From Candidatus Latescibacterota bacterium (GTDB lineage Bacteria > Latescibacterota > UBA2968 > UBA8231): a stretch of 64,000 nt of DNA. The notes under the pieces were generated by a model, which made no database searches, was not told the DNA's origin, and was given only the letters and a program-made list of their open reading frames with translations. How positions within the stretch are numbered: position 1 is the first letter of the stretch; every line of letters starts with the position of its first letter. Positions 31,190-51,993 of the stretch are shown here, one piece after another. The position numbers and the translations under genes were made by a program. The stretch is taken from the NCBI GenBank assembly GCA_965206595.1, contig OZ242214.1:4704001-4768000 (forward strand). Reading direction: 5' to 3'.

Positions 31190-31296
31190 TTCCGCTTCTG
31201 CAGCACCGTGTGGAAAACCAAGCCGGTTGGGATTGTTGGAATTCGATCGGAATTAGGATTTGGTCGCCTGCACTCGGGCGAGGAAAGACAACCACT

Positions 31297-34200
31297 TTGA
31301 CTGATTCGCCTTCATGTCCCAAGTGCGGTGCTCGCATGGTGAAACGCACCGCGAAGAAGGGCCCAAACGTCGGAGGACAGTTCTGGGGTTGCCCTCGGTT
31401 TCCAAACTGTGACGGCATCCGAGATCTTGGTGATCCTGGTGACAATCGCGAACCGCCTCAGCCTTCACGCAGGCCCAGCCTGCTGCCAGTCGAATGGATC
31501 GAAGGGATATCGCGCCACGATTTCATTCCCGAATACGTGGCCGTGGGGGCGATACCCGGAATCCTTCACGATCGCTTGAACCATGACGCACGTGTGAAAC
31601 AAGCACTCAGCCAATGCGTGCTGCTGTCCCGCAGAAGCCGCGAACGTCAGGAGGCCGTGGAGCATCCCCGCTTCGCGAGCGCGTTGCTTCTCAAGTTGCT
31701 GCGTCGCGGCCGAACCCCCCTGCCGACCCTCAACGTGGAACGTGAAGCCCTGCGCACGCACGGCTTCCAGGACAAGGTGAGCGAGTTTGGCCCGGGTAAT
31801 GCGGAGGTAGGTTGGGAACCGCGATCGGGCGTGTTTCTGCACGTGAGCCCTGAAGCCGTCCTGTCGGCAGTTACAGAAAGAGTTCCCTTTGTCCTTGATC
31901 CTGTTTTCGGTTTCGAGCCCGAATCAGGCGAACCGCTGCTGCAGAGCGAGGCCGAGGCGTGGTTCCTCAATGAGTGGGTGCCGAGGGCGCTGGGGCCGAC
32001 GGCCGGCCACTGGTTCACACCCCAGGCGCCACTGGACAAGCTGCTTGAGTCCGGAGGGCGAGGAGACGGCAGCGGTGTCCGGCGCATTGACTTCCTCTTC
32101 AACCACCCAAGTGGTCAGCCGTTTGCGATAGAGATCGACGGCCCGGAACACGAGGCAGCGGTGGATGTCGACGAGGAGCGTGATGAATCGTTGCGCTCGA
32201 TCGGGATTGACGTTCTCCGAGTTACAAACGCGGAAGTGCTGCAAGGTCAGGGAGCCGTGCTCGAACGAATCCGCAGCCGGTGTGCGGGGGCGCTCACGGC
32301 ATTCGACCAGGCTGCCGGTGAGGAGATGGCTTCGGCTTCGTTCGCAGTTGATTGCTCCACCGCTGCGAAGGTGCAGTTCGCAGTCGCCCGGGCCCTCGAG
32401 TACGGATGGCTGACCGCAGGTGAGAATTGGGAAATCGACATCAGCGGTGCCGGAGCGCCGGTCGCCGCTGGTATTCTGGACGCCCTTCAATTACTTGCAG
32501 GAATCGATGGTTTATATGGGGGTTGCTCGGTCCCTGCCAGATGTACGGTTCGTGCGGAGGAGGGGTTTGTAGTCAGGTGGATGCACACCGGAGGCGGCCA
32601 GTGGGTGGAGACCACCAATTCCGAAGCGCCGAGTCAACAGCTGCGCATTGGCGTCGAGAACACGGTAGGTCCGTTCCACCGCGTCCCTGGTGAGAGGTGG
32701 GACTTCATCATTCGCTCAGCGTGCATCCCGGCACGGATCGCAACTGAGCAAACGTTCGATTCTCGCCGCCGGCCCGTGGCTGCCTCGACCTGGGAGGAAG
32801 TTCACCTACCGCTCCGGATGTTTCTCCAGAACATATTCCGCAAGCGCGGATTCCGCCCAAGGCAGGGCGAGGCTGTCTTCAACATGCTGCGACAGAACGA
32901 CTGTGTCGTGCTGCTTCAGACCGGAGCTGGGAAGAGCATCATCTATCAACTCGCGGGACTGCTGATGCCTGGGGTGACGCTGGTCGTCGATCCGATCAAC
33001 GCGCTCATCGAAGACCAGGTCGAAGGTCTGAATTCTTATGGAATCGATCGCGCAGTTCCGATCAAGCGCGACCTCGCGACGCGTGAAGAGCGTAACCGCT
33101 TGCTCCGCCTGGTCGCACGCGGCGAGTACCAGTTCGTACTCCATTCACCTGAGCGGCTTCAGTCTCCTCAGTTTCGGGAGGCGCTCGAGGAGCTGAGGTG
33201 GAATTCATTGGTCAACATGGCGGTCATCGATGAAGCGCACTGCGTCTCGGAGTGGGGGCACGATTTTCGGCCCGCATATCTGAACCTCGCGAACAACCTG
33301 CGCCGGCTCTGCGAGGATCCCGAGGGCGCTCCACCACCGCTGCTTGCTCTAACGGGAACCGCCTCGCGTGCGGTCCTCCGGGACATGCTTGCGGATCTCG
33401 GTGTCGACAGGAAACGCTCGGACGCGCTGATTCGCCCCGAGTCTTTTGATCGTTCCGAAATCAGCTTCGAAATCGTGCGCACTTCCCCGAGGGAGAACCC
33501 CCAAGCAGCACTCCGTGGCGTGCTGCATTCCTTGCCGGGGAAATTTGGATTGCCTCGAACAGAGTTCTATCGATCCTCCGGGCGGGACACCGCCTCCGGG
33601 ATTGTATTCGTACCCACGGTCAGATCCCGGATGTACGGCCTGCAGGATACTCGCAACATCGTACGACAGGCGACGGGTTCGGAAGTTACCCTCTACAGTG
33701 GAAGCTCTCCCTGGCGCGGCGACTCGGGGAAATGGGACGTGGAGAAGCGCGACAACGCAGCGGCTTTCAAAACGAACCGCGTGCCCGTCCTCGTCGCGAC
33801 CAAGGCGTTCGGCATGGGCATCGATAAACCGAACATCCGGTACACGGTGCATTTCGGCATGCCGATGTCGCTCGAGAGTTTCTACCAGGAAGCTGGGCGC
33901 GCTGGCCGGGATCAAAAACCTGCCCGGTCGACCGTTGTGTTTTCCGAGTACGACAGGACCCGCTCGGACAAGCTGATCGACCCGGATCTCGCTCTCGAAG
34001 AGCTCCGTGAGCTTTTCACCAAAACAAGCCAGGACCGCAAAACCGCGGACGACGTGACACGGGCCCTCTGGTTCCACCTAGAGGGGTTCAGCGGGGCGGA
34101 CCGAGAGATCGAGGATGCGCGAAAGCTGATCGACGCGATCGGAGATCTGTCCGTCAGTCAACGGATGGAACGACCTTACGGCGACGAGGATCACAAGCGA

Positions 34201-35154
34201 GAGCAGGACAGTCGCAAACGCCAGGAGAAGGCCATATACCGTCTACTTAAGCTTGGTGTGATTCGCGACTATGAAGTCGATTTTGGAGCCAATAGATTCG
34301 TTGTCCACGTCGAGACGTTCGACTTCGACCGCTGTAAAGAACGACTGCTTGATTACGTACGGGCCGCCAACCCCGGGAGGAGTCAGTCTTTCGGACGGCG
34401 AGTAAATGAGATCGACGCTGAGGGGCCGCGTGACGCCGCGCTGGGGCTGGTCAAGGTGTTGATCGAGTTTACGTACGACGAAATCGAACGTTCCCGCCGC
34501 CGGTCGATTCAGGAGGCCGTTCTGCTGGCTCGTCAAGCTGGGAATGACGCGGAAATCCGCAGACGTCTGCTCGACTATCTTCAGGAGGGTCTTGGTGCCG
34601 AGTGCATCGAGGAACTGCTGGAGCGAGAAACGGTCGAGTTGTTCGAATGGTGGGATCTCGTCACCAAAATGCAGACTGAGATGGATGCGGGAGAGCTGCG
34701 TGGGCTGTGCATCCGCGCGCTAGAATCCTATCCGGATCACCCGGGGCTTCTTCTGACGCGCTCTTTGGCCGAATCCATGTGCTCCGATCACGATGAGATG
34801 GTCAGTTCGAGGGGGATCGGAACGGCGATTCGCACTGGAGTTGAGAAGTACGAGATCTCGGGAACAGACATCGAGTCGACCATTGACGAGATGTTCGAAT
34901 TCGCGTCAACTCGTGCGCGTGACCTCGGACCGCCCCTTACCACTGCGCTGTTCGATCTTGCCGATGAGCAGGCGGACTTTGCATTCGTCGAGAGCAGGGT
35001 TTCCAAACGTGCGGTCGAACTCGATGACCCTCGCGTGCGCGCTGTGATTGCGACGCGAAGGGTTCGAAACGTCGTCGATCAGTTGAAAGAGGTGGCTGAC
35101 CGAGTGGTTGCCCAATATGATGCACCGGGCGTAGTGGAGGCCTTAAGAGCATAA
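31297..35154 (+). CDS. large RecQ-family SF2 helicase fused to a topoisomerase C4 Zn-ribbon and a DUF559/Vsr-like nuclease domain
   Basis: CPKCGARM...FWGCPRFPNC; RIDF...IEIDGPEH...RDESLRSIGIDVLRV; QTGAGKS, DEAHCVSEWGHDFRP, AFGMGIDK, QEAGRAGRD; TTG start after AGGAAAG. Confidence 0.9.
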   Translation: MTDSPSCPKCGARMVKRTAKKGPNVGGQFWGCPRFPNCDGIRDLGDPGDNREPPQPSRRPSLLPVEWIEGISRHDFIPEYVAVGAIPGILHDRLNHDARVKQALSQCVLLSRRSRERQEAVEHPRFASALLLKLLRRGRTPLPTLNVEREALRTHGFQDKVSEFGPGNAEVGWEPRSGVFLHVSPEAVLSAVTERVPFVLDPVFGFEPESGEPLLQSEAEAWFLNEWVPRALGPTAGHWFTPQAPLDKLLESGGRGDGSGVRRIDFLFNHPSGQPFAIEIDGPEHEAAVDVDEERDESLRSIGIDVLRVTNAEVLQGQGAVLERIRSRCAGALTAFDQAAGEEMASASFAVDCSTAAKVQFAVARALEYGWLTAGENWEIDISGAGAPVAAGILDALQLLAGIDGLYGGCSVPARCTVRAEEGFVVRWMHTGGGQWVETTNSEAPSQQLRIGVENTVGPFHRVPGERWDFIIRSACIPARIATEQTFDSRRRPVAASTWEEVHLPLRMFLQNIFRKRGFRPRQGEAVFNMLRQNDCVVLLQTGAGKSIIYQLAGLLMPGVTLVVDPINALIEDQVEGLNSYGIDRAVPIKRDLATREERNRLLRLVARGEYQFVLHSPERLQSPQFREALEELRWNSLVNMAVIDEAHCVSEWGHDFRPAYLNLANNLRRLCEDPEGAPPPLLALTGTASRAVLRDMLADLGVDRKRSDALIRPESFDRSEISFEIVRTSPRENPQAALRGVLHSLPGKFGLPRTEFYRSSGRDTASGIVFVPTVRSRMYGLQDTRNIVRQATGSEVTLYSGSSPWRGDSGKWDVEKRDNAAAFKTNRVPVLVATKAFGMGIDKPNIRYTVHFGMPMSLESFYQEAGRAGRDQKPARSTVVFSEYDRTRSDKLIDPDLALEELRELFTKTSQDRKTADDVTRALWFHLEGFSGADREIEDARKLIDAIGDLSVSQRMERPYGDEDHKREQDSRKRQEKAIYRLLKLGVIRDYEVDFGANRFVVHVETFDFDRCKERLLDYVRAANPGRSQSFGRRVNEIDAEGPRDAALGLVKVLIEFTYDEIERSRRRSIQEAVLLARQAGNDAEIRRRLLDYLQEGLGAECIEELLERETVELFEWWDLVTKMQTEMDAGELRGLCIRALESYPDHPGLLLTRSLAESMCSDHDEMVSSRGIGTAIRTGVEKYEISGTDIESTIDEMFEFASTRARDLGPPLTTALFDLADEQADFAFVESRVSKRAVELDDPRVRAVIATRRVRNVVDQLKEVADRVVAQYDAPGVVEALRA

Positions 35155-35577
35155 ATGGACATTATGGAAGATTTACAGGAACGGCTCAATGAAACCGAGC
35201 GCCGAGCCATCGAGGTTGTCCGGCGACTGGAAGAGCTCGATGCGCTCCAGCAGTCACTTGCCATCGCAGGACGAGGGCTTGGCGAAGCAAGCGACAACGT
35301 CTCCGCACTTGCGGCTGCCACCCGAACTGCGATTGAATCACTGAACAGCACCCTTATTACGTTTCGGGAAGCAGTTGAGGTTTTCCAGCGCTCCGACCCA
35401 GGGCTAGTCAGAGAAAAGCTGGCAGGGATTGAGGAAGAACTCGGCCGCATCACCGAGAAGCTCCTCATCCTTGACGAGCTTTCACCGGAAATCCGGAGCA
35501 CTCGAAACGCTGTAGAACGCCTTTCGCAAAGGTCGATTTTCAACCAAATCTTCGGCGGGACCCGGAAGGCTGAGTGA
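35155..35577 (+). CDS. small coiled-coil protein, translationally coupled to the RecQ fusion
   Basis: ATG immediately follows the upstream TAA; heptad-like helical sequence. Confidence 0.7.
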   Translation: MDIMEDLQERLNETERRAIEVVRRLEELDALQQSLAIAGRGLGEASDNVSALAAATRTAIESLNSTLITFREAVEVFQRSDPGLVREKLAGIEEELGRITEKLLILDELSPEIRSTRNAVERLSQRSIFNQIFGGTRKAE

Positions 35578-35639
35578 GACTATAGCCCGAGCCTTTCTTC
35601 CATCCACATAGTGGTCGGTCAATGTAGCATTGCGGAGTA

Positions 35640-35812
35640 AAGATCTGTACACCTGAGGCCGCCCTCCAACGCAAGGAGCAAAGGAACCGTAAGGCGAAGA
35701 CGGTCGACGGGGAAGCGGAGGCCCGTCTCGTAGCTCTGGGCAGTAGCCCGCCGCCGGAGGGGAGGAAGTGCTGGACCCTCAGATTGTTAGTAGAGCGCCT
35801 CCTCACATTGCA
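35640..35812 (+). mobile_element. IS630-family transposase HTH fragment
   Basis: Translates as ...KTVDGEAEARLVALGSSPPPEGRKCWTLRLLVERL. Confidence 0.6.
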
Positions 35813-35813
35813 G

Positions 35814-35987
35814 GATACCCTGCGCCAGCAACAGCGCAACGTCCTCGACTATCTCAGGATGGCCTGCACCGCCGCCGTGCGTCAACAACCAGCGCCCTCG
35901 CTGCTGCCTTCAACCCATTCCGCCATTCGCTAATATCAGCCCGCGACCATTCCGTCCCCGGCCCCATCAGCAGGGAACTGAACGGTT
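35814..35987 (+). mobile_element. IS66 right-end remnant
   Basis: Highly similar to the reverse complement of 41357-41530; ends GAACTGAACGGTT. Confidence 0.85.
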
Positions 35988-36670
35988 GGTGTACCTTCAG
36001 ACTCTATCTATTGACTCCCATCGATATTTCCAGGAGAAACCCACGATGACCGACGACTACAGTGAGGCGCGTGAGCACGAGTATGCTGTCATCCGCCGCC
36101 GCGATCTCCTGGACTGCCTCGAAAAGCACACAATGCCTCGGCGGGAGAGCGATGTTCTTGACGGATTTCTGCGACGCCTGCGTAGTACCGAGGACGATGT
36201 GCAGAGTTGGAAATCAACCGAACCAAAGGAATGGTTATGGAATGCCTGGAAGGGCTTCTACATGGAACTGCAGAGACAGCCATCGCTGAAAGGGTGGTGG
36301 GGATATGTACCAAATCAGAGGGGTGGATTTCTCTCTTTCCGGCCGGAGTTCGAGACAACTGTCGGCGGGGTGAAACTGTATATCCACATCGAGAACGCAA
36401 AAAAGCTGTGCTTCCGAATTGAAATCGTTTCAAACAACGTCAACCGGAAGACGTTGAGATCATTGGTATGACTCCATTATCGGTCGATGCAACCAGGTGG
36501 GAATTCCGGCAAGAAAACCCGCCCGCTTCGGGTCCGGCTTGAACATGACCATCGCAGAAGTTGAGCAGGATGACTGGCTCGTAGTCCGGGACGGCCGTGT
36601 GGATGTTGCCATGACAGTGGCACGACTCCAGGAGTGTCTTGGGGTCGTCAGGGCCTTCCCGGCTGGGTAG
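35988..36670 (+). pseudogene. C-terminal part of a probable PD-(D/E)XK nuclease-family protein, 5'-truncated and frameshifted
   Basis: W.AW.GFY..L...WGYVPNQRGGFL...LYIHIE..KLCFRI; continues after a frameshift near 36468 as ...KPARFGSGLNMTIA; family recalled from motif. Confidence 0.5.
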
Positions 36671-36930
36671 CTTCCTCCCACGAGGATTGGATTGCATCCA
36701 TTCCCTCCCCTGCGAGGGACCGAGGGCATCCGTCATCCGGAGGATGGTCCCTGGGGCCTGCTGCCCCAGGCCGTTGAAATGCAGGGCTGACCAGTGATAA
36801 CGGCGAAGAATCCAGCCCCCTAACCGGCCTCGGAAATAGAACCCCACCCGTAAAAAGTCCTGCCTGCGACGCGATCTGTCGCAGCTGTAGGCCATAATCC
36901 TGGGATACATCCAATGACCCAGGATTCCAA

Positions 36931-38271
36931 ATGGCCGGCAATCAGCACATTCCGCCCCAGGCGATAGAAATAGAGCAGGCCGTATTGGGGGCGATGATGC
37001 TAGACCCTGGCGCCATCGACCGCGCCAGCGCAACCCTCGATCCGGACTGTTTTTTCCACGTCCCGCACAAATGGATTTACGCCGCAATAATCGACCTCCA
37101 CGAGCGCGGGGTGGCGATCGATCAGCTCACCTTGTCCGAGGAGCTCAAGCTCCGCGATCAGTTCCATGAGGCTGGCGGATCCGTCTACCTGGCCAGGCTG
37201 GCCATCGAGTTCGCCTCCGCGGCAAACATTGACGACCACGCGCGGATCATCCTCGACAAGGCACTCAGGCGCAAGGTGATCGAAACTGCCGGCGACATCA
37301 TCGAGCAGGCCAACGAAGGCAGCAGGGAGTTGGATGTTCTGCTTGAAAGCGCCGCGCAAGGTCTTGACAGGATCCGCCAAAACCAAATCGTCGATGGGCT
37401 TGAGCCGCTTGCTTCGCAAATCGGCGACGCCGTAAAACAGATTGAGCAATCCTGCAGCAGGGTAGGCTCCCTCTCCGGGATCGGGACGGGGTTCATCGAC
37501 CTCGATGATATAACCTGCGGCTTACAAAAAGGAGACCTTATCCTGCTTGCGGCTGCCCCGGGCGCCGGCAAAACGTCTCTGGCCTTTGCCCTGGCGCGCA
37601 ACGCCGCGGTAGAAACGGGGGTCGGGGTTGCAATCTTCAGCCCGAGAACTTCCAGAATGGAGCTGGCCCGGCGACTGCTCAGCGCGGAGGCGCAGGTGGA
37701 TCTGCACAAGCTTTGCAGCGGCCGGCTCCGCGACGACCAATTGGTTCACCTGAGGAGCGCCGCAGAACGTCTGGCCGGAATACCTGTCTATATAGACGAT
37801 ACCCCCCGAATTTCAATAACCGAAATCCGGACCAAGGCGCGCCGGTTGCATCGGGAGCACGGGATCGGCCTGATTTTCGTTAACTCTCTGGAAATGATGG
37901 GTCGACAGACGAAGGCCTACACCTGCAAGCAGGAAATCTCCCGGGGCCTCAAGGGCCTTGCCCAGGAGCTGAACGTACCAGTACTCGCCCTGTCGGAACT
38001 GGAATGCACCCAGGAAAGGCCGAGGTTGGAAGACTTGTGGGAGTCGGGAAATCTCGATCAGGAAGCCGACATGGTGATGTTCATCTACCACCCGGATATG
38101 CACGGCATCGAAGACCACGAAGACACCAGCTTCGAAGGCACTGCCGAAATCATCATCGCCAAACAGCGCAACGGCCCGCTTGGCTCGGTGAAGCTGCAAT
38201 GGAACGCCGAGAGCGCGACTTTCAGGAATTTGGCGCCGGAGTGGCGGACTGAGACCGAGGAAGAATATTAA
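36931..38271 (+). CDS. dnaB: DnaB-like helicase paralogue with degenerate catalytic motifs
   Basis: PPQAIEIEQAVLGAMM N-domain, TGFIDLD, EQDAD-like DQEAD, IIAKQRNGP; motifs changed to AAAPGAGKT, FSPRTS, VNSLEM, LSEL, DLWESG. Confidence 0.85.
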   Translation: MAGNQHIPPQAIEIEQAVLGAMMLDPGAIDRASATLDPDCFFHVPHKWIYAAIIDLHERGVAIDQLTLSEELKLRDQFHEAGGSVYLARLAIEFASAANIDDHARIILDKALRRKVIETAGDIIEQANEGSRELDVLLESAAQGLDRIRQNQIVDGLEPLASQIGDAVKQIEQSCSRVGSLSGIGTGFIDLDDITCGLQKGDLILLAAAPGAGKTSLAFALARNAAVETGVGVAIFSPRTSRMELARRLLSAEAQVDLHKLCSGRLRDDQLVHLRSAAERLAGIPVYIDDTPRISITEIRTKARRLHREHGIGLIFVNSLEMMGRQTKAYTCKQEISRGLKGLAQELNVPVLALSELECTQERPRLEDLWESGNLDQEADMVMFIYHPDMHGIEDHEDTSFEGTAEIIIAKQRNGPLGSVKLQWNAESATFRNLAPEWRTETEEEY

Positions 38272-38509
38272 CTTCAGTCCGGCCGACACCGGCGAAGCCG
38301 CTGGCTTGGTGCTTTCAGGATACCTTTCCCACATAGCTCGCTTCCTCCCCTTGGCCTGACCCTCCCGTAGTCCGGGAACTTCGGGGCGAATGCCTCCCTG
38401 CATAACCCCCCCAAAAGTCGCCCACCCGCGACATGATCCGTCGCACCCCCTGGAAAACAGGTTCGCTTTTTGCTGTACGAGAGCGAACCCATTCTCCCGG
38501 AGGAACGAC

Positions 38510-39271
38510 ATGCCTACCCAAAGAACCCGCGACCCGCGCACCCTCGACGACCACGGTCTTATTGGGGGCGGGACAATGACGGCGGCCGAGCAACCCCTTC
38601 TCCGGGTTCAGGGCTACAAGTCCAACCCCGAGTTTCTGGACGCGATGTTGAAAGAGGCAATTCTGCAGCTGGAGTGCGGCGGGCTGCGGCGCCTCGTGCG
38701 CCAGCGGAGCCGGCGGCGCTGGTGCGCCGGCCTGTGGATCGACCCGGAGGGGGCCATCCCGACGGGAAAGCTGCGGCAGCGGCTCGATATCTCGGAGCGT
38801 GAGTCGCTGCGCCTCGGAGGGGTTTCCGAGGCTCGACTGGAGGCGAGCGATCCGCAGGTGGTCCCGTTCCTCGACCTCGTCAGGCGTTGCCGCCTGACCC
38901 CCTTCGACCGGCAGGTGCTCTTGCTGCTGTTCTTCAGGGCGGTGTCGCCTGAGTTCCTTGACCACTACAAAGAGCTGGAATACGAACAGTTTGAACCGGG
39001 AACCCGGGGCCAAGGGGGTGGGCAGGAGGTGCGCATCCGCAGCCTGCTGGAGATACTCTGTTCGAGCAGAACCGGTGTGACCATACAGGCAATTAGCCGG
39101 TTCAGGGCCGACGCCCCCCTGATGGACTGCCACCTGCTGCGCATGGGCAGCGTCAACGAGCAGCGACCCTCGGTTCTCGACGTCGAGGTGCATCTACGCC
39201 GGCGGGTCCTGCCCTGGATCGGCGGGGAAACCCTCAGCTTCCCGGGGGACGATCCTTGTCCAGAGGAATAA
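38510..39271 (+). CDS. hypothetical protein resembling the N-terminal winged-helix region of AAA ATPases
   Basis: LVRRCRLTPFDRQVLLL...LLEILC...RFRADAPLMDCHLL...LRRRVLPWIGG; AGGA SD. Confidence 0.55.
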   Translation: MPTQRTRDPRTLDDHGLIGGGTMTAAEQPLLRVQGYKSNPEFLDAMLKEAILQLECGGLRRLVRQRSRRRWCAGLWIDPEGAIPTGKLRQRLDISERESLRLGGVSEARLEASDPQVVPFLDLVRRCRLTPFDRQVLLLLFFRAVSPEFLDHYKELEYEQFEPGTRGQGGGQEVRIRSLLEILCSSRTGVTIQAISRFRADAPLMDCHLLRMGSVNEQRPSVLDVEVHLRRRVLPWIGGETLSFPGDDPCPEE

Positions 39272-39369
39272 CCGGCTCGAGGACTCAGGTTACGAGGCGG
39301 CTGACAAACGAATCGATTTCGTAAGCGGAGGGGATTCTGGGATAGGGGGACATCGCGGCCGCCGGTCCC

Positions 39370-41354
39370 GAGTACCTTCGGGTCCTGCAGATGGCCGAGA
39401 ATCTCCGCTTTTCGTCGAACCACTGCGAAATCCCCCGGGGTGAGGTTGGTCAGGGTTTCGACTTCAGCCGGAGCCTCGGACTCGAAGTAGTTACGAAACC
39501 CCGCCATGGACTGACTTGGGGTGAGATAGTCCAGGGCGATCTTGAAAGTGAATCGCCGCAGGGTTGCCGGGTCTAGGGTTTCCCCGAAGTTGGTTGTACA
39601 CGCAAACGGCAGGGGATGGCTCTCCATCCAGGTCAGCATTTCGTTGACCTGGCTGACCTCCCAGGAGCGCACGGCGCCGCGGCGGTCGGCGAGCAGGGAG
39701 TCGGCCTCGTCGAAGACGAGGATGGAGCCTTCGGCGCGCGCCTCTGCGAAGGCGTCGGCAATAAGCCGTTCGGTTTGGCCGACCCACATAGACATCAGGT
39801 CGGAGGCCCGCTTCTGGGTTACCTGAAGGCCGAGGCGCTCGGCCAGATAGCGGACGAAGGCGCTCTTTCCGGTGCCGGGCGGACCTTGCAGACAGAGGGA
39901 GAAATGCTTTCCCCCGGTCTTTTCCAAGCGTTCCGTGAATCCCACCGGGTCGACGTCTGCCCGGATCAGGGCGGGATCGAATCTCTCCGGTGCCCCCTGC
40001 TGCATCGGCTTCTCTCCTGAAATCACCCGGGACAGGTTTTGCACGCCAAGGCGTACTGCAGCGAGGTCTTCACCACAAAGGCTCGCCGCGGCGATGGCCC
40101 CGGAAGCAACCCCGGGGGCCACGTCGAACTCCTTTGCAAGGGATTGGCCATCTTCCTCCGTCGCTTCGATGCCGTGGCGCGCCAGCTCCCGGCTCCATAT
40201 TCGTGCCCGGGTCCGGCGCGTGGGCCGGCGCAGCTCCAAGGCGCACGTCATACGGCGCAGGACGGTGGGACAGGTCTCCCTGGCGGAGTTCGATGTCCAG
40301 AGCGTCGGCACCGGTGTGCGTTCGAGCAGCCGGTTGAGAAACACCTTGGAGCCGCCGGAGCGGAGCGGGGAAAAGCCGTGTGAAGAGAAGGGTATCCAGC
40401 CAGAACCCGGGTCCGAGAGCAGGTCCTCCATCTCGTCGAAGAGCAGCATCGACCCGCCGCCCGGAGCCAGCAAATTCTGGGCGACCTGAAGCTCCTGGAG
40501 CCGTTCCCCCCGACGGGGTTCGTCGCCGCTATCGTCCGCTTCGCCCACACTGTAGAGGTTCGCCTGCAGCCGGGCGGCCAGGGTCTTGCAGAACTCCGTC
40601 TTTCCGGTGCCCGGCGGTCCATACACCAGGATGTTAACCCCCTTGGCGCGGGAACTCAGGGCGCCCTTGAGCACCTTTTCGATATGGTCGCGCTGTTCCG
40701 CGACATGGTCGAAGTCTTCCCACTCCAGCTCCCCCGGGGGCGCCGTATCGAGCAGCGGGCGGCGCATGTCGAGTTCGCCCTCGTCCGTGACGGTGACCAG
40801 CCGGTTCAGCCGCTTGACGATTTCGATGTCCCCGTCGTCGTCTATGGACACCAACCCGGACCTAAGGAGAGGAGCATCGGTCGCCAATCGGGCGCGGAGA
40901 ACACCGCCCGACACGCCGAGGACCCGGGGAAGCAAGGGGTTCGTAACATTGAATAAACTGGGTCGGATATGGCGAGAGGTGGTGAATTCGAAAACAGACT
41001 CGATCAGCGATTCGAAAATCGGCTGGGTGCGACTCCACATCAGGATTTCAAGGATGGCGACATCATCCGAAGCGAAGTCCATCGCCTTTCCGAGCTGCCT
41101 CAGCCGCTTCGCCGTGAGGTCTTCCCAGGCACCCTCGCCGGAAGACAACGTCGAGGACCTGTCCTCAAGGGTCTTCAGGAGACCCTGCCAATCCTTCTTT
41201 GAAAGGTCTTTCCCGAGGTACTTCCCCGCCCGGCGCTCGTACTGTTCCAACTCTTCCGATTCATCATTTTCGCATTCCAGGCCCAGCACCTTCCGGTTTT
41301 CGGCGACCCACACGGCCAGGTCCCTTGCTTCCGGACTGGCGCGGTGAATTCGCG
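39370..41354 (-). pseudogene. tandem (double) AAA+ ATPase, N-terminus cut by IS66, natural C-terminus apparently lost
   Basis: Two P-loops (YGPPGTGKT, QGPPGTGKS), Walker B LLFDEMED and LVFDEADS, LDPATLRRF; ORF starts inside IS66 and runs on into the convergent gene. Confidence 0.8.
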
Positions 41355-42975
41355 GTAACCGTTCAGTTCCCCTGGCAGGTTGGGGGCGGGGGCGGAATGG
41401 TAGCAGAATATTAGCGAATGGCGGAGTGGGTTGAAGGCAGCAGCGAGGGCGCCGGCTGCTGAGACACGGCCGCGTCACAGGCCATCCTGAGATAGTCGAG
41501 GACGTTGCGCTGCTGCTGGCGCAGGGTATCGCGTACCGTGAGCAGGCGCTCTACGAAACGGCTGCCTTCGGCACTGTGGGTACCGAAGCTGGTGTGACGC
41601 CACAACACGCCATGGCGAAGGGCTCGTTCGGCTTCGTTGTTGGTCGGCTCGACGCCGGGCCGGCGTGCGCAGGTCCACAGGGCCGGCCCGAGGTCGAGGA
41701 GATTGGCGCAGGTGGCCGCCGTCTTGGCGTCGGCGAACTGCTGCCCATAGCACAAATGAAAACGAAAGCGCAGACACAAATCGTCGATATAGTCCTGGAA
41801 GCGGGCGCGGGACAGGGTACCGTCGCGGACTTGATGCCACCAGGTAAACAGCTGCTCGCTGCGGTCCAACAGGTGTTGACCGACGCGCCCGGCCTCTCCG
41901 CCCCGGGCCACGAACTCCTCGAAGGCGCGCCGCAGATGAGCCCAGCACACGTGCCGGCGTCGTAGCGGCAGATGCGCGTAGGCCGAATAGCGATCGGAGC
42001 CGACCACCGCCCGGTTGTCCGCACCCAGCACCTCATCGACCCCGTCCCGTCCCCGGCTTGGGCGAATGGCGAACACGGTGACGCCGGCCGTCACCGCGGT
42101 CCACAACCAGGCCTTGGCGCGGCGCTGGCGCCAGCCGGTCTCGTCGACGTTGACGAGGCCCTGTCGGCGAACGAAGGCGCGCGCCTCCTCGACCGCACCC
42201 GCCAGGGCCCGCGGCCACTTCCCGTTCCAGTCGGCTGACCGTACCCAGCGACACCTCGAGGCCGAAGGCGTCGGACAACAACGCCCGGATGTTGCGCTTG
42301 CTCAGCCGGTAGGCCCCGGCCAGCAGGCCGACCCAGGCTTGCACGCTGGGACCGAAGGTGTGGCGCGACACGCCCTCGGGCCAACCGGCTGCGGTCAGGC
42401 GGTCGCAGTGACCGCAGCGCAGGGTGTGCAACTGATACTCGATGACCTCGGCCCGCAGCGGCGGGATGACGACTTCCTGGTGACGCTGCGGATGAGGATC
42501 GTCTCCCGTCAACGGGTGCCCGCATCCGTGGCACGTACTCGGCTTGACCGGGATCCGTTCGTCCACCTGCTCCACCGATACCCACGAGCGGCCGTGTCCT
42601 TCGTGCCCGGGCTGTCCGCCCGGCGAGCGCCCCGAGGATCGGCGTCGGGAGGTGTCGGTGCGCGGCGAGGAGGAAGCGCCCGATTGCGACGAGGCGGCCC
42701 GGGCACCGCGGCGGGAGCGCCCCTTGCGGCGGGCCAATTCCCGCTCCAGCTCCCCGATGCGCGCCGTCTGTTGTTCCACGATCTGCTCAAGCTGGACAAT
42801 GCGCTGGCGCAGGTCGCCTTCGGAAATCGTACTCTCAGGAGGTCTCTTCATGGGGTCGCCGTATCCAGGGAAATCTGCAACACACAACCGATCCCGAAGA
42901 TACCGACGAACCCGAAAACCCGCTTAGGTATTTCTTTATATGCTCAAACTACTGCAGGGGGGACTGAACGGTTAC
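41355..42975 (-). mobile_element. IS66-family element (single TnpC type), transposase frameshifted
   Basis: Terminal IRs GTAACCGTTCAG at 41355 and CTGAACGGTTAC ending 42975; PGGQPGHEG, CHGCG, SDRYSAY, CWAHLRR, PTNNEAERALR; flanks do not match (no TSD). Confidence 0.92.
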
Positions 42976-43017
42976 CTTTTCGGAAAGCTCCAGCTCTAAT
43001 TTTTGCCGCTTGGTCAT
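42976..43017 (-). pseudogene. first 14 codons of a gene truncated by IS66, possibly the major capsid protein
   Basis: ATG overlaps the HNH stop (ATGA) after GGAG; MTKRQKLELELSEK, then the IS66 IR. Confidence 0.35.
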
Positions 43018-43331
43018 CGGTCTTCTCCGGTTGTGTTGGTGCATGTAGGTGAGGGGGTTTCGCTATGACTGGAGAGCCGCTCAACGAACCTTAACCACTC
43101 CAGCCGCGCGGGGGATAGCTTTGCCGTTTTCTCCGCTGCGAAATGACAGCGCCGGCAAAGCGTTCTCAGATTGCGCAAATCGTAGGGCGCGCCGCCAGTG
43201 CGCGGGGGGTCCGTATGGTGTACTTCCAGCCGCCAGCGGGCGCCGCATTCTGTACATTTTTCCCCGTCCCGCTGTAGGACTTTGGAGCGGGTTAGCTCCC
43301 ATTGCTTGCCCTTCAAACTGTGCTTACTCAT
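43014..43331 (-). CDS. phage-type HNH endonuclease
   Basis: W..TRSKVLQRDGEKCTECG...LEVHH...NLRTLCRRCH. Confidence 0.9.
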   Translation of the reverse strand: MSKHSLKGKQWELTRSKVLQRDGEKCTECGARWRLEVHHTDPPRTGGAPYDLRNLRTLCRRCHFAAEKTAKLSPARLEWLRFVERLSSHSETPSPTCTNTTGEDR

Positions 43332-43342
43332 ACCAGTGCACT

Positions 43343-44512
43343 AGTGTCATGTCGTGTAATTAACTGTACAAACAATTGAAAGTGCCGTAGGTTTCCCTTA
43401 TCCCCCTTCTGAAAGGAGAGACCTATGGTGACGGGGCGTCCATTAACGCCGTTAGAGCTGAGTCCGTCGGACCGGGAACGACTGGAATCGATGGCCAAAT
43501 CACGAAGTCTTCCCCACGGATTGGTGCGGCGAGCCGAGATGGTGCTGCTGGCCGCCGATGGCTGGCCCAATGAAGCGGTCGCTTCCGCGGTGGGTGTGAC
43601 GCGAGCTACGGTGGGCAAATGGCGCCGGCGTTTTCTCGACAACGGACTCAATGGCTTGTATGATGAACTACGTTCAGGGGCGCCGCGATCGATCACGGAC
43701 GAGCAGGTAGCCGAGGTGGTATACAAGACCCTGAAGACCAAGCCCAAAGACGAAACACAGTGGTCGGTGCGCTCCATGGGCGAAGAAACCGGCCTGACCA
43801 AGGACGCGGTTCATCGCATTTGGCGCACGTATGGTTTGCAGCCCCATCGACACAAGCGCTTCAAGCTTTCCACCGATCCTTTCTTTGTCGACAAAGTACG
43901 GGATATCGTCGGCTTGTACCTGAATCCCCCCGAGCACGCCCTGGTGCTGTGCGTGGACGAGAAGAGCCAGATCCAGGCGTTGGAACGAAGTCAGCCCATG
44001 CTGCCCCTGGGACTGGGATACGTGGAAGGGATTACGCACGACTACAAGCGGCACGGCACCACCACCCTGTTTGCCGCCCTGGACATCGCCACCGGGGAAG
44101 TGATGACCCAGTGCAAGCCCCGTCATCGTCACCAGGAGTTCCTCCAGTTCCTGCGCCACATCGAGGCCAACGTGCCCGCTGACCTCGATATTCATCTCGT
44201 CGTCGACAACTACGCCACGCATAAGCATGCCAAGGTCAAGCGATGGCTGGCACGGCGTCCCCGATTTCACCTTCACTACACTCCCACGTATGCTTCGTGG
44301 CTCAATCAGGTGGAGATCTGGTTCAATATCCTCACCCGCCAGGCGGTTCGGCGCGATTCGTTCCGCAAGGTGTCGGAGCTCATCGAGCGAATCGAACGCT
44401 ACACGGCCAAATGGAACGCCAACGCACACCCTTTCGTCTGGACGGCTACGGCGGATTCCATCCTCGCCAAAATCAAGAGACTTTGTGAACGAATCTCTGC
44501 GACAGGACACTA
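43343..44512 (+). mobile_element. IS630-family element with intact transposase (43425..44513)
   Basis: Ends CTAGTGTCATGTCG and CGACAGGACACTAG at a CTAG/TA target; [30 protein letters not shown]. Confidence 0.95.
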
Positions 44513-45851
44513 GCTCGACTTCGACGGGGAGCGGGAGCGGGTAGGGTCTCGCCTAGGCCAGCGGCAATAGTCGCGGCTGCAAGGGCGTCTATCCTGCCGC
44601 TGTTGTTTTGTTTGCATAATGCGGGGTTTCCGCCGGGGTCACGGCGGATCTTGCTATCCTTTACGGCGCTGGCCAGTAGCCGGGCGCCAGTAGCGAGGGA
44701 CAAGCCGCCCGCGATCGCCAGCCGTTCAAAACTTCGCACGTCGGCGCTACCGTCAGCCGTCTTACTGGCACCGGTCCCCCGCCATACCGGGCGCCAGCGG
44801 AGGCCCGCGTCTTTTATCGCCTGCTCCGCTTCTTTCTGCCGGTAGCGGTCGGCTCCAACCTCCGCCACGTCGACCCCGTGCAGCTCGCGGGAAACCCGCT
44901 TAAAAAACTGGGGTATGTCTGAAACGAGGTCGCCACATTGCCACAACTCGCCTTGTGCGTGAAGGACCGTATAGAGCGGTCCTACGCCGTCGCTTTTCCC
45001 CCGGTCCGCCAGCGGGGGAAAAGCCGGGACAGCCGCGTATACCTCAAGGCGCCCGGTAGCTGGCCATAGAGCCGCCGCCGCCGTCATCGCGCGGCTCCCG
45101 CCAAGGTCCAACCCCACCACGCAGCGGCCACGGCGCGGGGCAACCTCGCGCGCCATGCACCGTTGCATCTCGACAGCGGAGATTATAGGATCGGTCCCGG
45201 CTCCTATCGGTGCGTTAAGCTCCAAACGTCGAAAATCCGCTTCGTCGCCGGGGGTTTGTGCGGCTGAAGCTGCGAGCTTGCGGAGCTTTTTCAGGCTCTT
45301 AACCCCGTACGAAACTGCGGGGTTTGCGGCTAGCAACGCCGCCTCGTCATCGAGACTGCAATCGACGGGCGCCGCATGTACGGATACCTCCCCCCGCTCG
45401 ATCATCTCGGCGAACATTGGCCCGATATCTCTTATTGAAATGGCTAGCAATTTTCCATCTTTTGCCGTCGTACTTGTGCGGAAACTGTTATAGAGCGGGC
45501 GCTTTCTTTCAGGTAGTTGTCCCGCCTCATCGAGAATCGCTAGATCGGAACCAACGGCGTGACCGGAGGATTTTTCAGAGTTCCAGAATGTCGCCCTTGC
45601 GTCAAAATCCTTCGCCTCGATCCAACCGGGATAAGGCGCTTTCCGCTCGCTTATGGGCAACCCGCTAGCCTCCGCGATTGCTACAATTTGCTGTTTCAGT
45701 TCGACGGATAGCTGGCCAGTCAACGAAACCGCATTTGCCCGCCAGCCCGGGCGCCGTAGCGGTCCGCAAAGGTGCGCTAGTATCAAGGCCGCAACCGTCG
45801 CGGTTTTCCCGTTCTTTCTCCCGGTACTTAAGGCTGATTCGCTTGTTTCAG

Positions 45852-48572
45852 CCCTTGTTATTCATGGAATTTCAGTAAAAGGAGCTGTACTGGGGTGCCT
45901 CCCATGCTTAGGTTTCAGAGGGAAACACAAGGCAGTATCACCCTTTGACCCAACCACACAGGAGGACACCCAATGGGTGAATTACCGTCCCCCACCCCGT
46001 CCCCGCAAGCCGGGCCGATTCAGCCGTCTTTCAACCGCTCCATTCACATTGAAGCTCGCCCCACTCACCTCAGCGGCGACCCCGGTTCGCTGGTGTTGCG
46101 GCAACTGCTCGAACACAGCCAGGTCCTGGATTGGGTGGATGCCCACTTCGAGGATCGCCGTAGCCCGGACCAGATCACGCACCCGCTGTCGGAACTTTTG
46201 CGCACGCAGATCGTGCTGATGGCGCAGGGCTTGCCCCACGCCGACGACGCCGACGCCGACGCGCTGCGGCAGGATCCGATCCTGCGTCTGGCGGTCAGCG
46301 ATCGCAAAGGGCAGTCGCCGTTGCGCCCAGCCGACGAAGGCCGGCCGCAGGGACTGGCCAGTCAGCCGACGCTGTCGCTGATCGGGCAAGCCTCCAGCGC
46401 CTACAACCGCGCGCTGTTGGAGGAAGCGGTGCTGCGCAGCGCCTGGTCCCGGTGCCAGTTGCTGGAACGACGGCTGCGCTACGAGGAGTTGGCCGTCGAC
46501 ATGGATGCCTTGCCGATGCCGGTGCACGGACACCCGCAGGGGGTGGAGTACAACGGCTACTTCCACGCCTCGGGGTTCCATCCTCTGATCATCGGCTCGG
46601 CGCAGACGGGCGACTTCTTCGGCGCCGTGTTGCGGCCGGGCAACGTGCACGCGCATGAGGGCGCCGAAGCGGCTATCCTGGAGCGCCTGGACTGGATTCT
46701 AATCGCACTTGGCCGGCCGCGTCCTCCTGCGCTTCGACGCGGCCTCGGTGAGCGGGCCCTTCCTGAGCCGGCTGGAAGCGCGGGACAACACCTGAACCTA
46801 TCTCAAAATAGGCAAACTTAAACTTGTTTTCGAAATGACAGTGATGTACCATTGGTGTATGGTCAATCTGACCGACATGCAATGGCAACGAATCCGGCAT
46901 CACTTTCCTGAAGAACTTCGTCCCAAGAGCCATCCGGGGTCGCAAACCGGTTTGCACCCGCGATGTTTTTGAAGCCGTTCTTTGGATTCTAAACACCGGG
47001 GCTCAATGGCCTATGTTGCCGCAGTGCTATCCGAACTACAAAACCGTGCATCGCCGTTTTCAAAACGGGTGTCGTCAAGGGGTTTTACGCGAAGTTCTCA
47101 TGGACCTGGCCCAGACCCTTCACGAGCAAGGGGGCCTGGACGAATCGGAGGCTTTCATCGATGGCATGTTCTCGGCGGCCAAGGGGGGAGGTGCCGATAT
47201 CGGCCACACCAAGCGAGGTAAGGGGGTGCGGGTCATGGGGATCGTGGACGGCAATGGGCTTCCCTTGTCGGTGAGCACGCATGCAGCGAACCATCATGAA
47301 GTGACGCTGGTTCAGTTGACCTTTGACTTTTACCTGATCGAAGACCAACCTGACAACTTGATCGGCGATAAAGCGTACGACAGCGATTCGTTGGATGAAG
47401 AGCTTAAGAAAGACGGGATCGAGATGATCGCCCCGCATCGCCAGAATCGGACCAAGAAAAAAACTCAGGACGGACGGCGATTGCGGCGTTATGTGCGGCG
47501 TTGGATGGTTGAGAGATTCTTTGCTTGGCTTCAATGGCAGCGTCGAGTGATCACTCGCTGGGAATTGTATCCGGAGAATTTTCTTGGCTTCGTCCAACTT
47601 GCATCCATTTTGATTTTACTTAAACAATTTCAATTTTGAGATAGGTTCCTCGTACGGGTCGCGCATCAAGAAGAATGCGCGCCTGGAGGACGTGGCTCGT
47701 CCCTGGGTGGAAGCCTATCAGCAGGAGCTGGCGCAGCACCCGGAGCGGTTGCGCGAAGAGGGTTTTCGCTGTCGCGAGCTGCGCTATCAAGCCAAGTCCT
47801 GGGCGCAGCCCCGACGGGTGGTATTGGTATGGGTCCCCTCCGAGACGGAGGAGTTGCCCATCGCCCGCCACTTTTTCCTGATCACCGACCAAAGTCCCCA
47901 GACGATGGGCGCCCGCGACGTGGTCGCCTTCTACCGTCAGCGCGGCCTCTTCGAGCGCATGCTCGGAGAGCTGAGCTCCACCCTTCAGCCCCAGCTCTCC
48001 TCGACCACCCGTCGCAAACAGCACTACCGCGGTCGTCCACCGGGTCAGCGCACCCCGTCCCGGGATGCCTTCGCCGCCAACCAGGCGATCCTGACCCTGA
48101 ACCTGCTGGCCTACAACCTGCTGCACCTGGGCCGCCAGGCCGCCGAACGCGCCGAGGCCCGACGCGGGCGGCCCCGCACATACGGACGCTCGACGACGGC
48201 CCTGAGCCTGGACAGCTTTCGACGGCGCTACCTGCGCCTGCCGTCCCGCGTCACCTTGCACGGACGCAGGGTGGGCGTCATCCTGACCCAAGGGATGGCG
48301 GCTCCCTGGGACCGTCTGTGGAGATTTCTGGCCACGCTCAGACCCGTGGATATGGGGATGGCGTAACCCCGGGCCGGGTCGGTTGGGGTAATCGGCTCGC
48401 AAGCGAAGTGTCTCCACGGAGGCGCGTACAATTTCAACAAGGTCGGTAGAGATAGGGGGACGGCTCTACCCAAAAAGGCAACTATAGAAGGGAGGCAGGC
48501 CTTGGAGGCTATGCAGTGGGGTCTCGGAAGCGCCTATACCCGCTTAGGCGCTGGTTGTATGAATAACAAGGG
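45852..48572 (+). mobile_element. IS1380-family element interrupted by IS5
   Basis: IRs CCCTTGTTATTCAT / ATGAATAACAAGGG; 5-bp TSD TTCAG (45847-45851 and 48573-48577); LASQPTLS, YNGYF..GFHPL, LRPGN, YRQRG..E. Confidence 0.92.
46794..47648 (+). mobile_element. IS5-family element nested in IS1380
   Basis: IRs GAACCTATCTCAAAAT / ATTTTGAGATAGGTTC; 2-bp CT duplication; LTDMQW, FIDG, GDKAYDS, RWMVERFFAW; frameshift near 46940. Confidence 0.92.
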
Positions 48573-48751
48573 TTCAGGGTCCAAAGCCACGGACAACCAA
48601 TCCTGCACAAAAGGGAGAATCCGGAGCGGCTCGCCGGCCAACGGATGCCCCTGCGGTACGACAAGGGTCTTTTCCGCCCAATCCGTAAGCGTAGCCGCTC
48701 GCTCCGCTCCGCTGGCGGTTGCCGGCAAGGGGAATCCCCCGGGGTACCGCG

Positions 48752-48786
48752 GGCGCTGTACGGCGCTGTACGGCGCTGTACGGCGC
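48752..48786. repeat. 10-bp tandem repeat (GGCGCTGTAC)x3.5 in the terminase 5' region
   Basis: Read directly. Confidence 0.95.
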
Positions 48787-48972
48787 GCCTGCGCCGTTGA
48801 GACTCCCGGCAACACTTCCGCCGCTTCTCAGGGTCCTTGTACGGCACTTAGGAAAGCCTCTCAGAGAAACGTGACACCCTCCAGCCGGTGCCGCTGCAAG
48901 GGGTTCGGCCGGGGGGGACAGGGGTCCCCGGGCGGGGGGCAGGGGGCAGGGGGTAGGGTCTGGGGGCGATCA

Positions 48973-49377
48973 TCAAAAGCCAAATTCGCTGATGGGCTCG
49001 ATCAACCCGCGGGCGCGCAGCCTGTCGTACGCCGTTTGCTCTTCAATGTCCAAGCGAATCAGGAGGTTGGCGTAGTCGTCGAAAGCTGCGCGCAACCGCC
49101 CTTCCACGCGCGGAAGTTGCGCGGGGGGATAGCCGTGCACTCTCGCGGATTTTGTCGCGTATGCGCTTTGAATTCCCGGGGTAGTCATACGCAAGTAGAG
49201 CCGCCCTTGCTCGTCGCGTAGGAACTTCCTGCGCTTCCATAGGTTGCGATACAAGGCGCCGCTCCGTCGGTCCCGGCCGTGGTAGGCGCGACGCTGGCGC
49301 CTCGCCACGGTCGCGGCAAGGCTCAATAGGCGCCTTTCCGCGCGGCTGACATCGCGCCGCCGTACGCGTTCAGGCAC
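48973..49377 (-). CDS. basic hypothetical phage protein (possible neck/tail-completion protein)
   Basis: Overlaps the stop of the upstream tail-terminator-like gene; R..SGALYRN motif; same strand as terL. Confidence 0.5.
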   Translation of the reverse strand: MPERVRRRDVSRAERRLLSLAATVARRQRRAYHGRDRRSGALYRNLWKRRKFLRDEQGRLYLRMTTPGIQSAYATKSARVHGYPPAQLPRVEGRLRAAFDDYANLLIRLDIEEQTAYDRLRARGLIEPISEFGF

Positions 49378-49810
49378 TGGCGCCGCTCCGTCTGGAAAAC
49401 TGCACGGCTAGTCGCAACTCCCAGCGGGTGTATTGCACTGCGTCTGCATTTATGCCCGTGCGCCGCAACGCCGCCTCTCCCACCCTTACGGTTCCCCCGC
49501 CAGCAGTTTGTAGGTCCGTCGCCTCAAGGCTGTTGGTGAGGCTGTCAGCCGTCCTTAGCGCCTCGCTTTCGTCGCGGTCGCGGGGTAGGTAAATCCCGAT
49601 CAAGAGATCGGCGTCAACGTCTACCCGGGCGCGCTTGCCTATGCTGGCTTTGGTCGCGTCAACTGGGGAATAAATGGCGCGCAACCATGGCGCCCCCACT
49701 GGCGGGGTGAAGTTCCGATTGCCCCGGGCTACCGGGATAGCCGGGGATAGCTCGCCGGCCAGCCGTTCAACTTCGGCGATTAGGGCAGTATTGACGCTTT
49801 CGTGATTCAT
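49370..49810 (-). CDS. phage tail-terminator-like protein (DUF4128-like)
   Basis: PVARGNRNFTPPVGAPWLR...IGIYLPR...ADSL pattern. Confidence 0.65.
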   Translation of the reverse strand: MNHESVNTALIAEVERLAGELSPAIPVARGNRNFTPPVGAPWLRAIYSPVDATKASIGKRARVDVDADLLIGIYLPRDRDESEALRTADSLTNSLEATDLQTAGGGTVRVGEAALRRTGINADAVQYTRWELRLAVQFSRRSGASA

Positions 49811-49845
49811 TCGGCGGGGGTCCGGGAGTTCGGGGGGATCAAAGG

Positions 49846-49865
49846 TTATCCACAAGTTATCAACA
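49846..49865 (+). promoter_or_regulatory. two tandem DnaA boxes
   Basis: TTATCCACA (49846-49854, perfect) and TTATCAACA (49857-49865, one mismatch), followed by an AT-rich stretch. Confidence 0.65.
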
Positions 49866-51778: not shown

Positions 51779-51944
51779 GGCTTTTCCCTCCGTGTCAGCA
51801 ATTTGTCAGCAAAATGAACGGTACGGATGGGCGCGGGTCAATGCCAAAGCAATGAGATTTATTCCCCTAACCTGCTATTTATCATAGGCTTATACTATAA
51901 AAGCATGATAAAACGGGGGGTTTTGTGAATGCGGAAAAAAGTGC

Positions 51945-51989: not shown

Positions 51990-51993
51990 AAAT

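Follow-up and report, generated by a model that had tools for sequence, protein, structure and literature searches.

An intact dnaB-like gene with altered motifs

The window analysed here, that is, the whole 64-kb stretch from a Candidatus Latescibacterota genome (contig OZ242214.1, positions 4,704,001 to 4,768,000), carries an open reading frame (ORF) of 446 codons whose product, P0001, has the two-domain architecture of the replicative helicase DnaB together with replaced catalytic residues. This protein is called pseudo-DnaB below. A first-pass annotation of the DNA had described an uninterrupted frame with an N-terminal and a RecA-like domain, and this description is borne out by the ORF and by Pfam: the frame contains no in-frame stop and the opposite strand is closed. 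The gene, its domains and its motifs are listed in window coordinates, "core" designating the canonical DnaB of the bacterial family concerned.

36931..38271, plus strand: pseudo-DnaB ORF, 446 residues (P0001), ATG to TAA, with an AGGA Shine-Dalgarno-like motif upstream
36952..37254, plus strand: DnaB N-terminal domain, residues 8-108 (Pfam PF00772, 1.4e-28, profile 2-102 of 103)
37477..38229, plus strand: RecA-like DnaB_C domain, residues 183-433 (Pfam PF03796, 1.8e-73, profile 1-255 of 255)
37549..37575, plus strand: Walker A AAAPGAGKT, residues 207-215 (core AARPSVGKT); GKT kept, Arg of ARPS lost
37636..37653, plus strand: H1a FSPRTS, residues 236-241 (core FSLEMS); catalytic Glu replaced by Arg239
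37882..37899, plus strand: Walker B NSLEMM, residues 318-323 (core DYLQLM); Asp replaced by Asn318
37990..38007, plus strand: H3 LSELEC, residues 354-359 (core LSQLSR); Gln replaced by Glu356, followed by a 5-residue deletion
38032..38052, plus strand: H4 DLWESGN, residues 368-374 (core DLRESGS); Arg replaced by Trp370
38161..38178, plus strand: KQRNGP beta-hairpin, residues 411-416, with Arg finger R413; kept

Among solved structures, the closest relative is Geobacillus DnaB (2vye_A, E 3.9e-91). In an AlphaFold2 model with a mean predicted local distance difference test score (pLDDT) of 70.9, both domain cores lie mostly above 70 and the linker is low; a Foldseek search of this model against the Protein Data Bank returned DnaB chains for all top matches, the best being 2r6a_A (E 3.4e-37). 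The TIGR00665 equivalog is narrowly passed (402.1 bits for a cut-off of 385.25). The scores remain below the respective cut-offs for all PRK equivalog models, for the phage model TIGR03600 phage_DnaB (315.6 versus 498.65) and for the SPI-7-type DnaB model NF040583 (307.2 versus 655). Because the TIGR00665 cut-off is passed, annotation pipelines that apply it are likely to name such proteins "replicative DNA helicase", and the copies can mislead replication-gene counts and marker-based analyses. A promoter and terminator scan gave sites no more numerous than in shuffled sequence.

Alignment with the Geobacillus DnaB structure, with the core DnaB of the same genome and with 26 other core DnaBs of the family confirmed every substitution listed in the first-pass annotation, as well as the retained KQRNGP finger. 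Moreover, the 5 residues missing after H3 lie within the former DNA-binding loop. In DnaB, the H3 Gln is the gamma-phosphate sensor and the Arg/Gly loop of H4 contacts single-stranded DNA (ssDNA). A preprint on Vibrio DnaB describes a composite site to which one subunit contributes the P-loop Lys, Glu259 and Asp340 and the adjacent subunit Arg439, and reports for the E259A variant an absence of ATPase activity and much reduced unwinding (bioRxiv 10.1101/2024.11.09.622779). From their spacing to the P-loop Lys, Arg239, Asn318 and Arg413 of pseudo-DnaB appear to be the equivalents of Glu259, Asp340 and Arg439, respectively. Taken with the published E259A result, the sequence predicts a loss of activity: pseudo-DnaB should bind nucleotide and offer its Arg finger to the neighbouring subunit, but should not hydrolyse ATP. 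It is also predicted not to track ssDNA, because the H4 Arg is gone and the loop is shortened. Since four catalytic or DNA-binding features of active DnaB fail, the protein should not be filed as a replicative helicase.

Recurrence of the catalytic losses

Conservation was studied in 22 paralogue rows, corresponding to 13 genes extracted from related genomes and 9 database paralogues, and in a comparison set of 27 core DnaBs of the family. The core rows are canonical without exception (AARPSVGKT, FSLEMS, [IV][IV]DYLQLM, LSQLSR, DLRESGS and GKQRNGP). The catalytic Glu is gone from 20 of the 22 paralogue rows, with Arg, Lys or Gln instead (FSPRTS, FSPRNS, FSTRTS, FSPKMS, FSPQMS, FSLQMS), so that the recurrence in other genomes that had been proposed as a check on the first-pass annotation is indeed observed. 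Most of the rows also lack the Walker-A Arg and have altered H3 (LVQLSC/F, LSEL) and H4 (DLPE--G, DLSAL-G, DLWESG) motifs. GKT and QRNGP are kept in 22 of 22 rows, and both are invariant in a 14-row paralogue alignment. At the Walker B position, Asn318 is common to this copy and its closest relatives; P0008, P0010 and the g12 subclade still have Asp. Two paralogues keep the Glu, a copy in genome G010 and the database protein P0009, both reading FSLETS.

Across the 27 core rows, 201 columns are invariant, and 64 of them are changed. Four are changed in every Glu-less paralogue, three by conservative hydrophobic swaps and the fourth being the catalytic Glu (residue 239), whose position thus shows the only radical change common to all 20 Glu-less paralogues. 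Intact Glu-less copies are found in 11 of the 76 family genomes, 12 copies in total, with 436-455 aligned residues. As a control, 4 second DnaB copies from another family of the same class keep all motifs; duplication on its own does not entail decay.

A profile search covered 1.84 billion representatives; because clustering at 50% identity merges paralogues with core DnaBs, the matches listed are mostly core DnaBs. Among the 150 matches listed, 131 keep the Glu, 4 are non-canonical (P0010, the fragment P0139, P0123 and P0124) and 15 are long, probably intein-bearing proteins that the motif pattern could not parse. Two of these database proteins are degenerate DnaBs: in P0123 the P-loop Lys is Thr and the Walker B Asp is Gly, with the Glu kept, and in P0124 the Glu is deleted and the Arg finger is a Pro. 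In genome contigs, a search for related loci gave the G011 record alone, and no relative of P0001 was found in viral contigs. In metagenome contigs, the only match of P0010 was a DnaB at 40% identity (L061). A Glu-less paralogue of genome G036 (L041:9410-11593) is in frame with a full PhzF-like domain, giving 727 residues, probably because loss of a stop codon fused it to the gene next to it.

Origin by duplication of the host helicase

The genome of the window (G000, one 7.05-Mb contig) contains two DnaB_C matches, a canonical core dnaB at G000:C1:1596584-1597936 (356.5 bits) and pseudo-DnaB (249.5 bits), whose products are 53% identical. The phylogeny was examined with a careful maximum-likelihood tree of 36 rows, after removal of 14 near-duplicates from the 50 rows of a first tree. 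All family core DnaBs stand on one side of a 97/95 branch and the paralogues form a single clade. With the phage-type DnaB of a relative as outgroup, this clade branches from within the core DnaBs of the family itself. Thus, pseudo-DnaB is a duplicate of the helicase of the host lineage rather than a phage helicase.

Within the clade, the Glu-keeping subclade (the G010 copy and P0009) is sister to the subclade of the window (90/77, not starred), so that the Glu was either lost twice or regained once. The stem branch of the window's subclade is long (0.41-0.43). The G+C content at third codon positions (GC3) of pseudo-DnaB is 0.73, versus 0.88 for the canonical dnaB of G000 and 0.69-0.75 for the copies of genus g12. 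This GC3, far from that of the genome's own core gene and near that of the g12 copies, together with the lower G+C (GC) content of the surrounding stretch, suggests that the copy was probably acquired horizontally from a relative.

Purifying selection after loss of the catalytic Glu

Pseudo-DnaB and its G011 orthologue share 93.7% amino acid identity. With 32.5 synonymous (Sd) and 31.5 nonsynonymous (Nd) differences, their ratio of nonsynonymous to synonymous substitution rates (dN/dS) is 0.29 (binomial p=5e-6), or 0.18 for the N-terminal domain (NTD) and 0.37 for the C-terminal domain (CTD). Five other paralogue pairs give 0.20-0.34 (p<=8e-12), and the range over twelve paralogue pairs and two methods is 0.20-0.39; p-values for the paralogues run from 5e-6 to 3e-14. 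Core DnaB pairs from the same genomes give 0.11-0.19. The divergence within the Glu-less subclades is entirely younger than the loss of the Glu. In 6 of the 7 pairs compared within the paralogue clade, the NTD is the better conserved of the two domains, the reverse of what core-to-core pairs show: constraint in the paralogue clade has shifted towards the N-terminal domain. Of the 28 amino acid differences from the G011 orthologue, 9 fall in residues 359-378, the former H3-H4 loop. Contigs from other studies that contain the 2.5-kb block around the gene (see below) show substitutions and no insertion or deletion (indel) inside the ORF; indels are present only outside it.

The first-pass annotation had named early neutral decay as the alternative, and substitutions private to this copy with a dN/dS near 1 as grounds against its own proposal. 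What is seen is a dN/dS of 0.29 for this copy, well below 1 as for the other pairs, and substitutions that recur in the relatives. Neutral decay is therefore rejected for this lineage.

Genomic setting in the window and in related genomes

Between 32 and 56 kb of the window, the GC content falls from about 0.65-0.70 to 0.57-0.64. The variable stretch, rich in insertion sequences (IS), and the genes next to pseudo-DnaB are as follows; WHD stands for winged-helix domain.

31195..53420, no strand: low-GC, IS-rich variable stretch; its flanks are not adjacent, lying 110-160 kb apart, in the sister genomes G011 and G012
31210-35154, plus strand: DpdF/PsyrT-like helicase, intact, 1314 residues, preceding pseudo-DnaB (PADLOC DpdF 1.3e-82, PsyrT 4.6e-62)
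36834..39370, no strand: 2.5-kb block with pseudo-DnaB and the WHD remnant; 92.8% identity to G011, where the flanks differ
38576..39271, plus strand: WHD(PF22977)+AAA ATPase remnant, 231 residues from Met63; start of a ~720-residue protein that G010 encodes in full downstream of its DnaB paralogue; cut at the same residue in G011
38965..41478, minus strand: WHD-AAA-AAA ATPase of type f2, with IetA-like AAA domain; homology ends at 39369, the last ~20 codons are lost and the frame continues beyond, antisense to the WHD remnant

The description of the locus as an island full of broken genes was accurate: the stretch contains IS66 fragments, a split DDE transposase, a TerL ORF reduced to its nuclease domain, the truncated WHD-AAA gene and the 3'-truncated AAA gene. 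Only the 36834-39370 block is shared with G011. Because the WHD-AAA gene is cut at the same residue in both genomes, its truncation predates their split. Co-folding of pseudo-DnaB with the WHD remnant (residues 63-293) scored 0.00, which gives no verdict and is counted neither way.

All three paralogue subclades are located in variable islands where defence, toxin-antitoxin and IS genes abound. The g12 paralogue stretch is flanked on one side by ClpP-Fpg-DUF5069-Peptidase_C26 and on the other by metallophosphoesterase, radical-SAM and DUF6807 genes; the latter three are also present in the window at 27.2-30.6 kb. It contains a WYL/WCX regulator, PDDEXK_4 nucleases (PADLOC PDC-S26), AAA_14-DUF4143 (PDC-S01), AbiEi/AbiEii, a CAP12-type TIR protein, ParE/Phd, HigB/HigA, an ADP-ribosylglycohydrolase, REase-ARP and an f2 WHD-AAA-AAA ATPase of ~690 residues. 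This hotspot, between Peptidase_C26 and the metallophosphoesterase and led by the WYL/WCX regulator, is recurrent (L037-L046, L054-L056). The Glu-keeping G010 copy follows a DNA methylase, an AAA_15 ATPase, a TIR protein and a ResIII helicase and precedes a 742-aa WHD-AAA ATPase. A WHD-AAA gene lies directly downstream of the paralogue in subclades a and b, and 10 of the 13 paralogue loci have an f2 AAA gene no more than 10 kb away. Neighbours matching PADLOC models are DpdF/PsyrT, the IetA-like AAA protein, PDC-S26, PDC-S01 and WYL. No reverse transcriptase (RT) was seen in the loci scanned here.

A probable non-catalytic paralogue and its possible role in phage-host conflict

Taken together, these data make it likely that pseudo-DnaB is a maintained, non-catalytic paralogue of DnaB that acts by binding. 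It would still bind nucleotide and assemble like DnaB, and would be unable to hydrolyse ATP or to translocate on ssDNA, which leaves binding as its mode of action. The first-pass annotation had proposed a non-catalytic subunit. The recurrent loss of the Glu and the dN/dS of 0.20-0.39 support that proposal in part. The roles then suggested, poison of hexamers or bait for phage helicase loaders or inhibitors, draw their support from the island context only.

As to the function served by binding, pseudo-DnaB may be a mimic of the host helicase that soaks up or senses phage proteins (loaders, inhibitors) targeting DnaB, with a possible hand-over to neighbouring effectors such as the WHD-AAA ATPase. 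A role in phage-host conflict is favoured because the protein is derived from the host DnaB, because the elements for assembly and nucleotide binding are kept without the motor, and because the islands are of the defence type. Phage proteins of this kind exist: Ped1 of phage PaoP5 binds and inhibits the host DnaB, and the pair is described as mutual antagonists (EMBO J 2026, PMC13728149). The whole statement, a maintained and catalytically dead DnaB paralogue with a decoy or sensor role in phage-host conflict, is plausible, at somewhat short of an even chance. In its strict form of an immune decoy, the ATPase-dead DnaB would keep the surfaces seen by phage loaders or inhibitors and capture these proteins, either shielding the replisome or reporting them to effectors (WHD-AAA ATPase, nucleases); this form would resemble, in its logic, the integrated decoys of plant immune receptors, and we consider it a minority possibility. 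The copy in the window probably arrived horizontally and has lost its intact WHD-AAA neighbour, with purifying selection on pseudo-DnaB continuing.

It should, however, be noted that several observations weigh against this interpretation. Core-invariant motif columns are changed no more often than the others (15 of 40 versus 49 of 161, p=0.45), so that constraint has shifted broadly, rather than the active site having been taken out selectively. Remnants of the paralogue are found in G049 and G033, and one G010 copy is frameshifted; thus some lineages are losing it. The Glu-less clade was seen in one bacterial family only and, because its members come from related genomes, the counts and loci are not independent. 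The link of pseudo-DnaB to defence is purely contextual, one of guilt by association. With PADLOC-DB 2.0 the protein matches no defence model, the only signal being a weak one to mad8 (1.1e-7) over 64 P-loop residues. The f2 gene accompanies the paralogue only loosely: of the 76 genomes, 24 have f2, many of these lack a DnaB paralogue, and G052 and G031 have the paralogue but no f2. Since f2 often occurs without the paralogue, its co-location may merely reflect a shared hotspot. In the window itself only a remnant is left of the WHD-AAA neighbour, and the f2 gene lacks its 3' end. Finally, secreted proteins are encoded in the islands as well: the f20 lipoprotein and the f22 protein, which resembles outer-membrane proteins (OMP). 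The f22 gene is directly upstream of the paralogue in 7 g12-type loci and its product has a signal peptide and a weak OMP-barrel match; f20, a lipoprotein with collagen-like GPxG repeats, is encoded directly upstream of the AAA ATPase in the g12 hotspot. These features led us to reject f22 and f20 as cytosolic partners.

The main rival takes the dead paralogue for a subunit with a poisoning or regulatory effect, which would join core DnaB rings, or compete for the loader or the primase, and stall the replisome, acting as an effector of growth arrest or abortive infection or as a replication brake. The identity of 53% to core DnaB and the kept Arg finger and P-loop are what ring membership needs, and the most constrained part of the paralogue is the N-terminal domain, which carries the primase contact in solved DnaB-DnaG complexes (such as 7t22). 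Toxin-antitoxin and abortive-infection genes are among the neighbours. However, no cognate antitoxin or regulator is conserved beside the paralogue across subclades, a constitutive dominant-negative DnaB should be costly, and the present data do not separate mixed rings from homo-oligomers. We regard such a subunit as rather unlikely. Smaller again is the chance that pseudo-DnaB serves a WHD-AAA ATPase system as a structural or adaptor subunit, the DnaB fold being reused as a ring scaffold without any helicase mimicry. The WHD-AAA gene directly downstream in G010, its remnants here and in G011 and the proximity of f2 to most paralogue loci would fit such an adaptor, as would the DnaB_C proteins reported to have accessory ORFs of their own next to type XI-like retron RTs (PMC13712802). 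Against it, f2 and its WYL regulator are found without a DnaB paralogue in many genomes, the paralogue is found without f2 in two, and pseudo-DnaB stays under selection in the window although WHD-AAA is truncated there.

Two explanations remain. A functionless duplicate undergoing neutral decay would account for the broken-gene surroundings, the 64 changed core-invariant positions, the truncated or frameshifted relatives in G049, G033 and G010 and the long stem branch of the subclade. It was already disfavoured, and is very improbable in view of the dN/dS of 0.2-0.4 on divergence younger than the Glu loss, of the 12 intact copies and of the absence of ORF indels in the contigs of other studies. 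Hardest of all to credit is a helicase of a mobile element that would still be active thanks to substitute catalytic residues. The TIGR00665 cut-off is passed, the island bears integrase and IS genes, and second DnaBs are common on mobile elements; but replacements affect the Glu, the Walker B Asp, the H3 Gln and the H4 Arg alike, and residues are missing from the DNA-binding loop, whereas the sampled DnaBs from mobile elements or second copies (L047, L048-L051) keep every motif. Moreover, the phage and SPI-7 models stay below their cut-offs and viral contigs yielded no relative. The preferred reading thus remains that of a maintained paralogue that acts by binding, possibly as a mimic in phage-host conflict.

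Relation to known systems

Pseudo-DnaB shares with the replicative DnaBs of Geobacillus, E. coli and Vibrio the two-domain architecture, the fold, the P-loop GKT and the Arg-finger hairpin; it differs from them by the loss of the catalytic Glu, Walker B Asp, H3 Gln and H4 Arg and by the 5-residue loop deletion. Compared with the core copies of its own family, it is a second copy located in a low-GC island, with a dN/dS about twice as high and with constraint shifted to the N-terminal domain. The second DnaBs of phages and genomic islands (TIGR03600, NF040583) are likewise extra dnaB genes in horizontally acquired islands. However, pseudo-DnaB is below their cut-offs and branches from the host family core, and the extra DnaBs sampled here (L047, L048-L051) keep their motifs. 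Inactive P-loop ATPase paralogues that keep fold and interfaces, lack hydrolysis and work by binding are exemplified by Pol III delta-prime and by the Rad51 paralogues. With these proteins, the relation of pseudo-DnaB is one of analogy only, without sequence relationship beyond the superfamily.

In full-text searches of the literature, neither a catalytically dead DnaB paralogue nor a DnaB decoy was found described. The nearest reports are those of the phage DnaB inhibitor Ped1 (PMC13728149) and of the retron-associated DnaB_C proteins. The latter are accessory proteins beside type XI-like retron RTs in Bacteroidota, recorded in an mSystems 2026 survey (PMC13712802). As that survey presents them, they also place a DnaB fold in defence-island contexts; they differ from pseudo-DnaB in belonging to Bacteroidota and in standing beside an RT.

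DnaB is usually treated as a single essential enzyme. The conserved clade described here would provide a hexameric helicase that is naturally unable to hydrolyse ATP, and with it a means of studying what the surfaces of DnaB do besides unwinding. If the defence reading is true, replication-protein mimicry joins the known bacterial answers to phage takeover, and the clade points to DnaB-targeting phage proteins in an uncultured phylum.

Other features of the window and of related loci

The 1314-aa helicase upstream of pseudo-DnaB has an N-terminal Zn-ribbon (Top1/GRF type), a DUF559/MTES_1575 endonuclease-like domain and a DEAD/Helicase_C core; no counterpart at the DNA level was found in the sister genomes G011 and G012. 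An intact second f2 copy is located elsewhere in the genome (G000:C1:2236863-2238953), in a WYL-led cluster with Schlafen/AlbA_2, metallo-beta-lactamase-fold and PDDEXK_4 genes. The WHD(PF22977)+AAA family is widespread, with deltaproteobacterial, Aminicenantales, archaeal and Kitasatospora records.

No tRNA was found within the 64-kb window. A repeat of ~740 bp (window ~52681-53417), whose ORFs have no Pfam match, is present in more than 25 copies (>25) in G011, and an IS66-family element (window ~41355-42984) is present there in at least 10 copies. Prophage scraps are also visible, namely the TerL ORF with only a nuclease domain (44473-45786, minus strand), a tail terminator (49370-49882, minus strand) and a tyrosine integrase with an arm-binding domain (50618-51778, minus strand).

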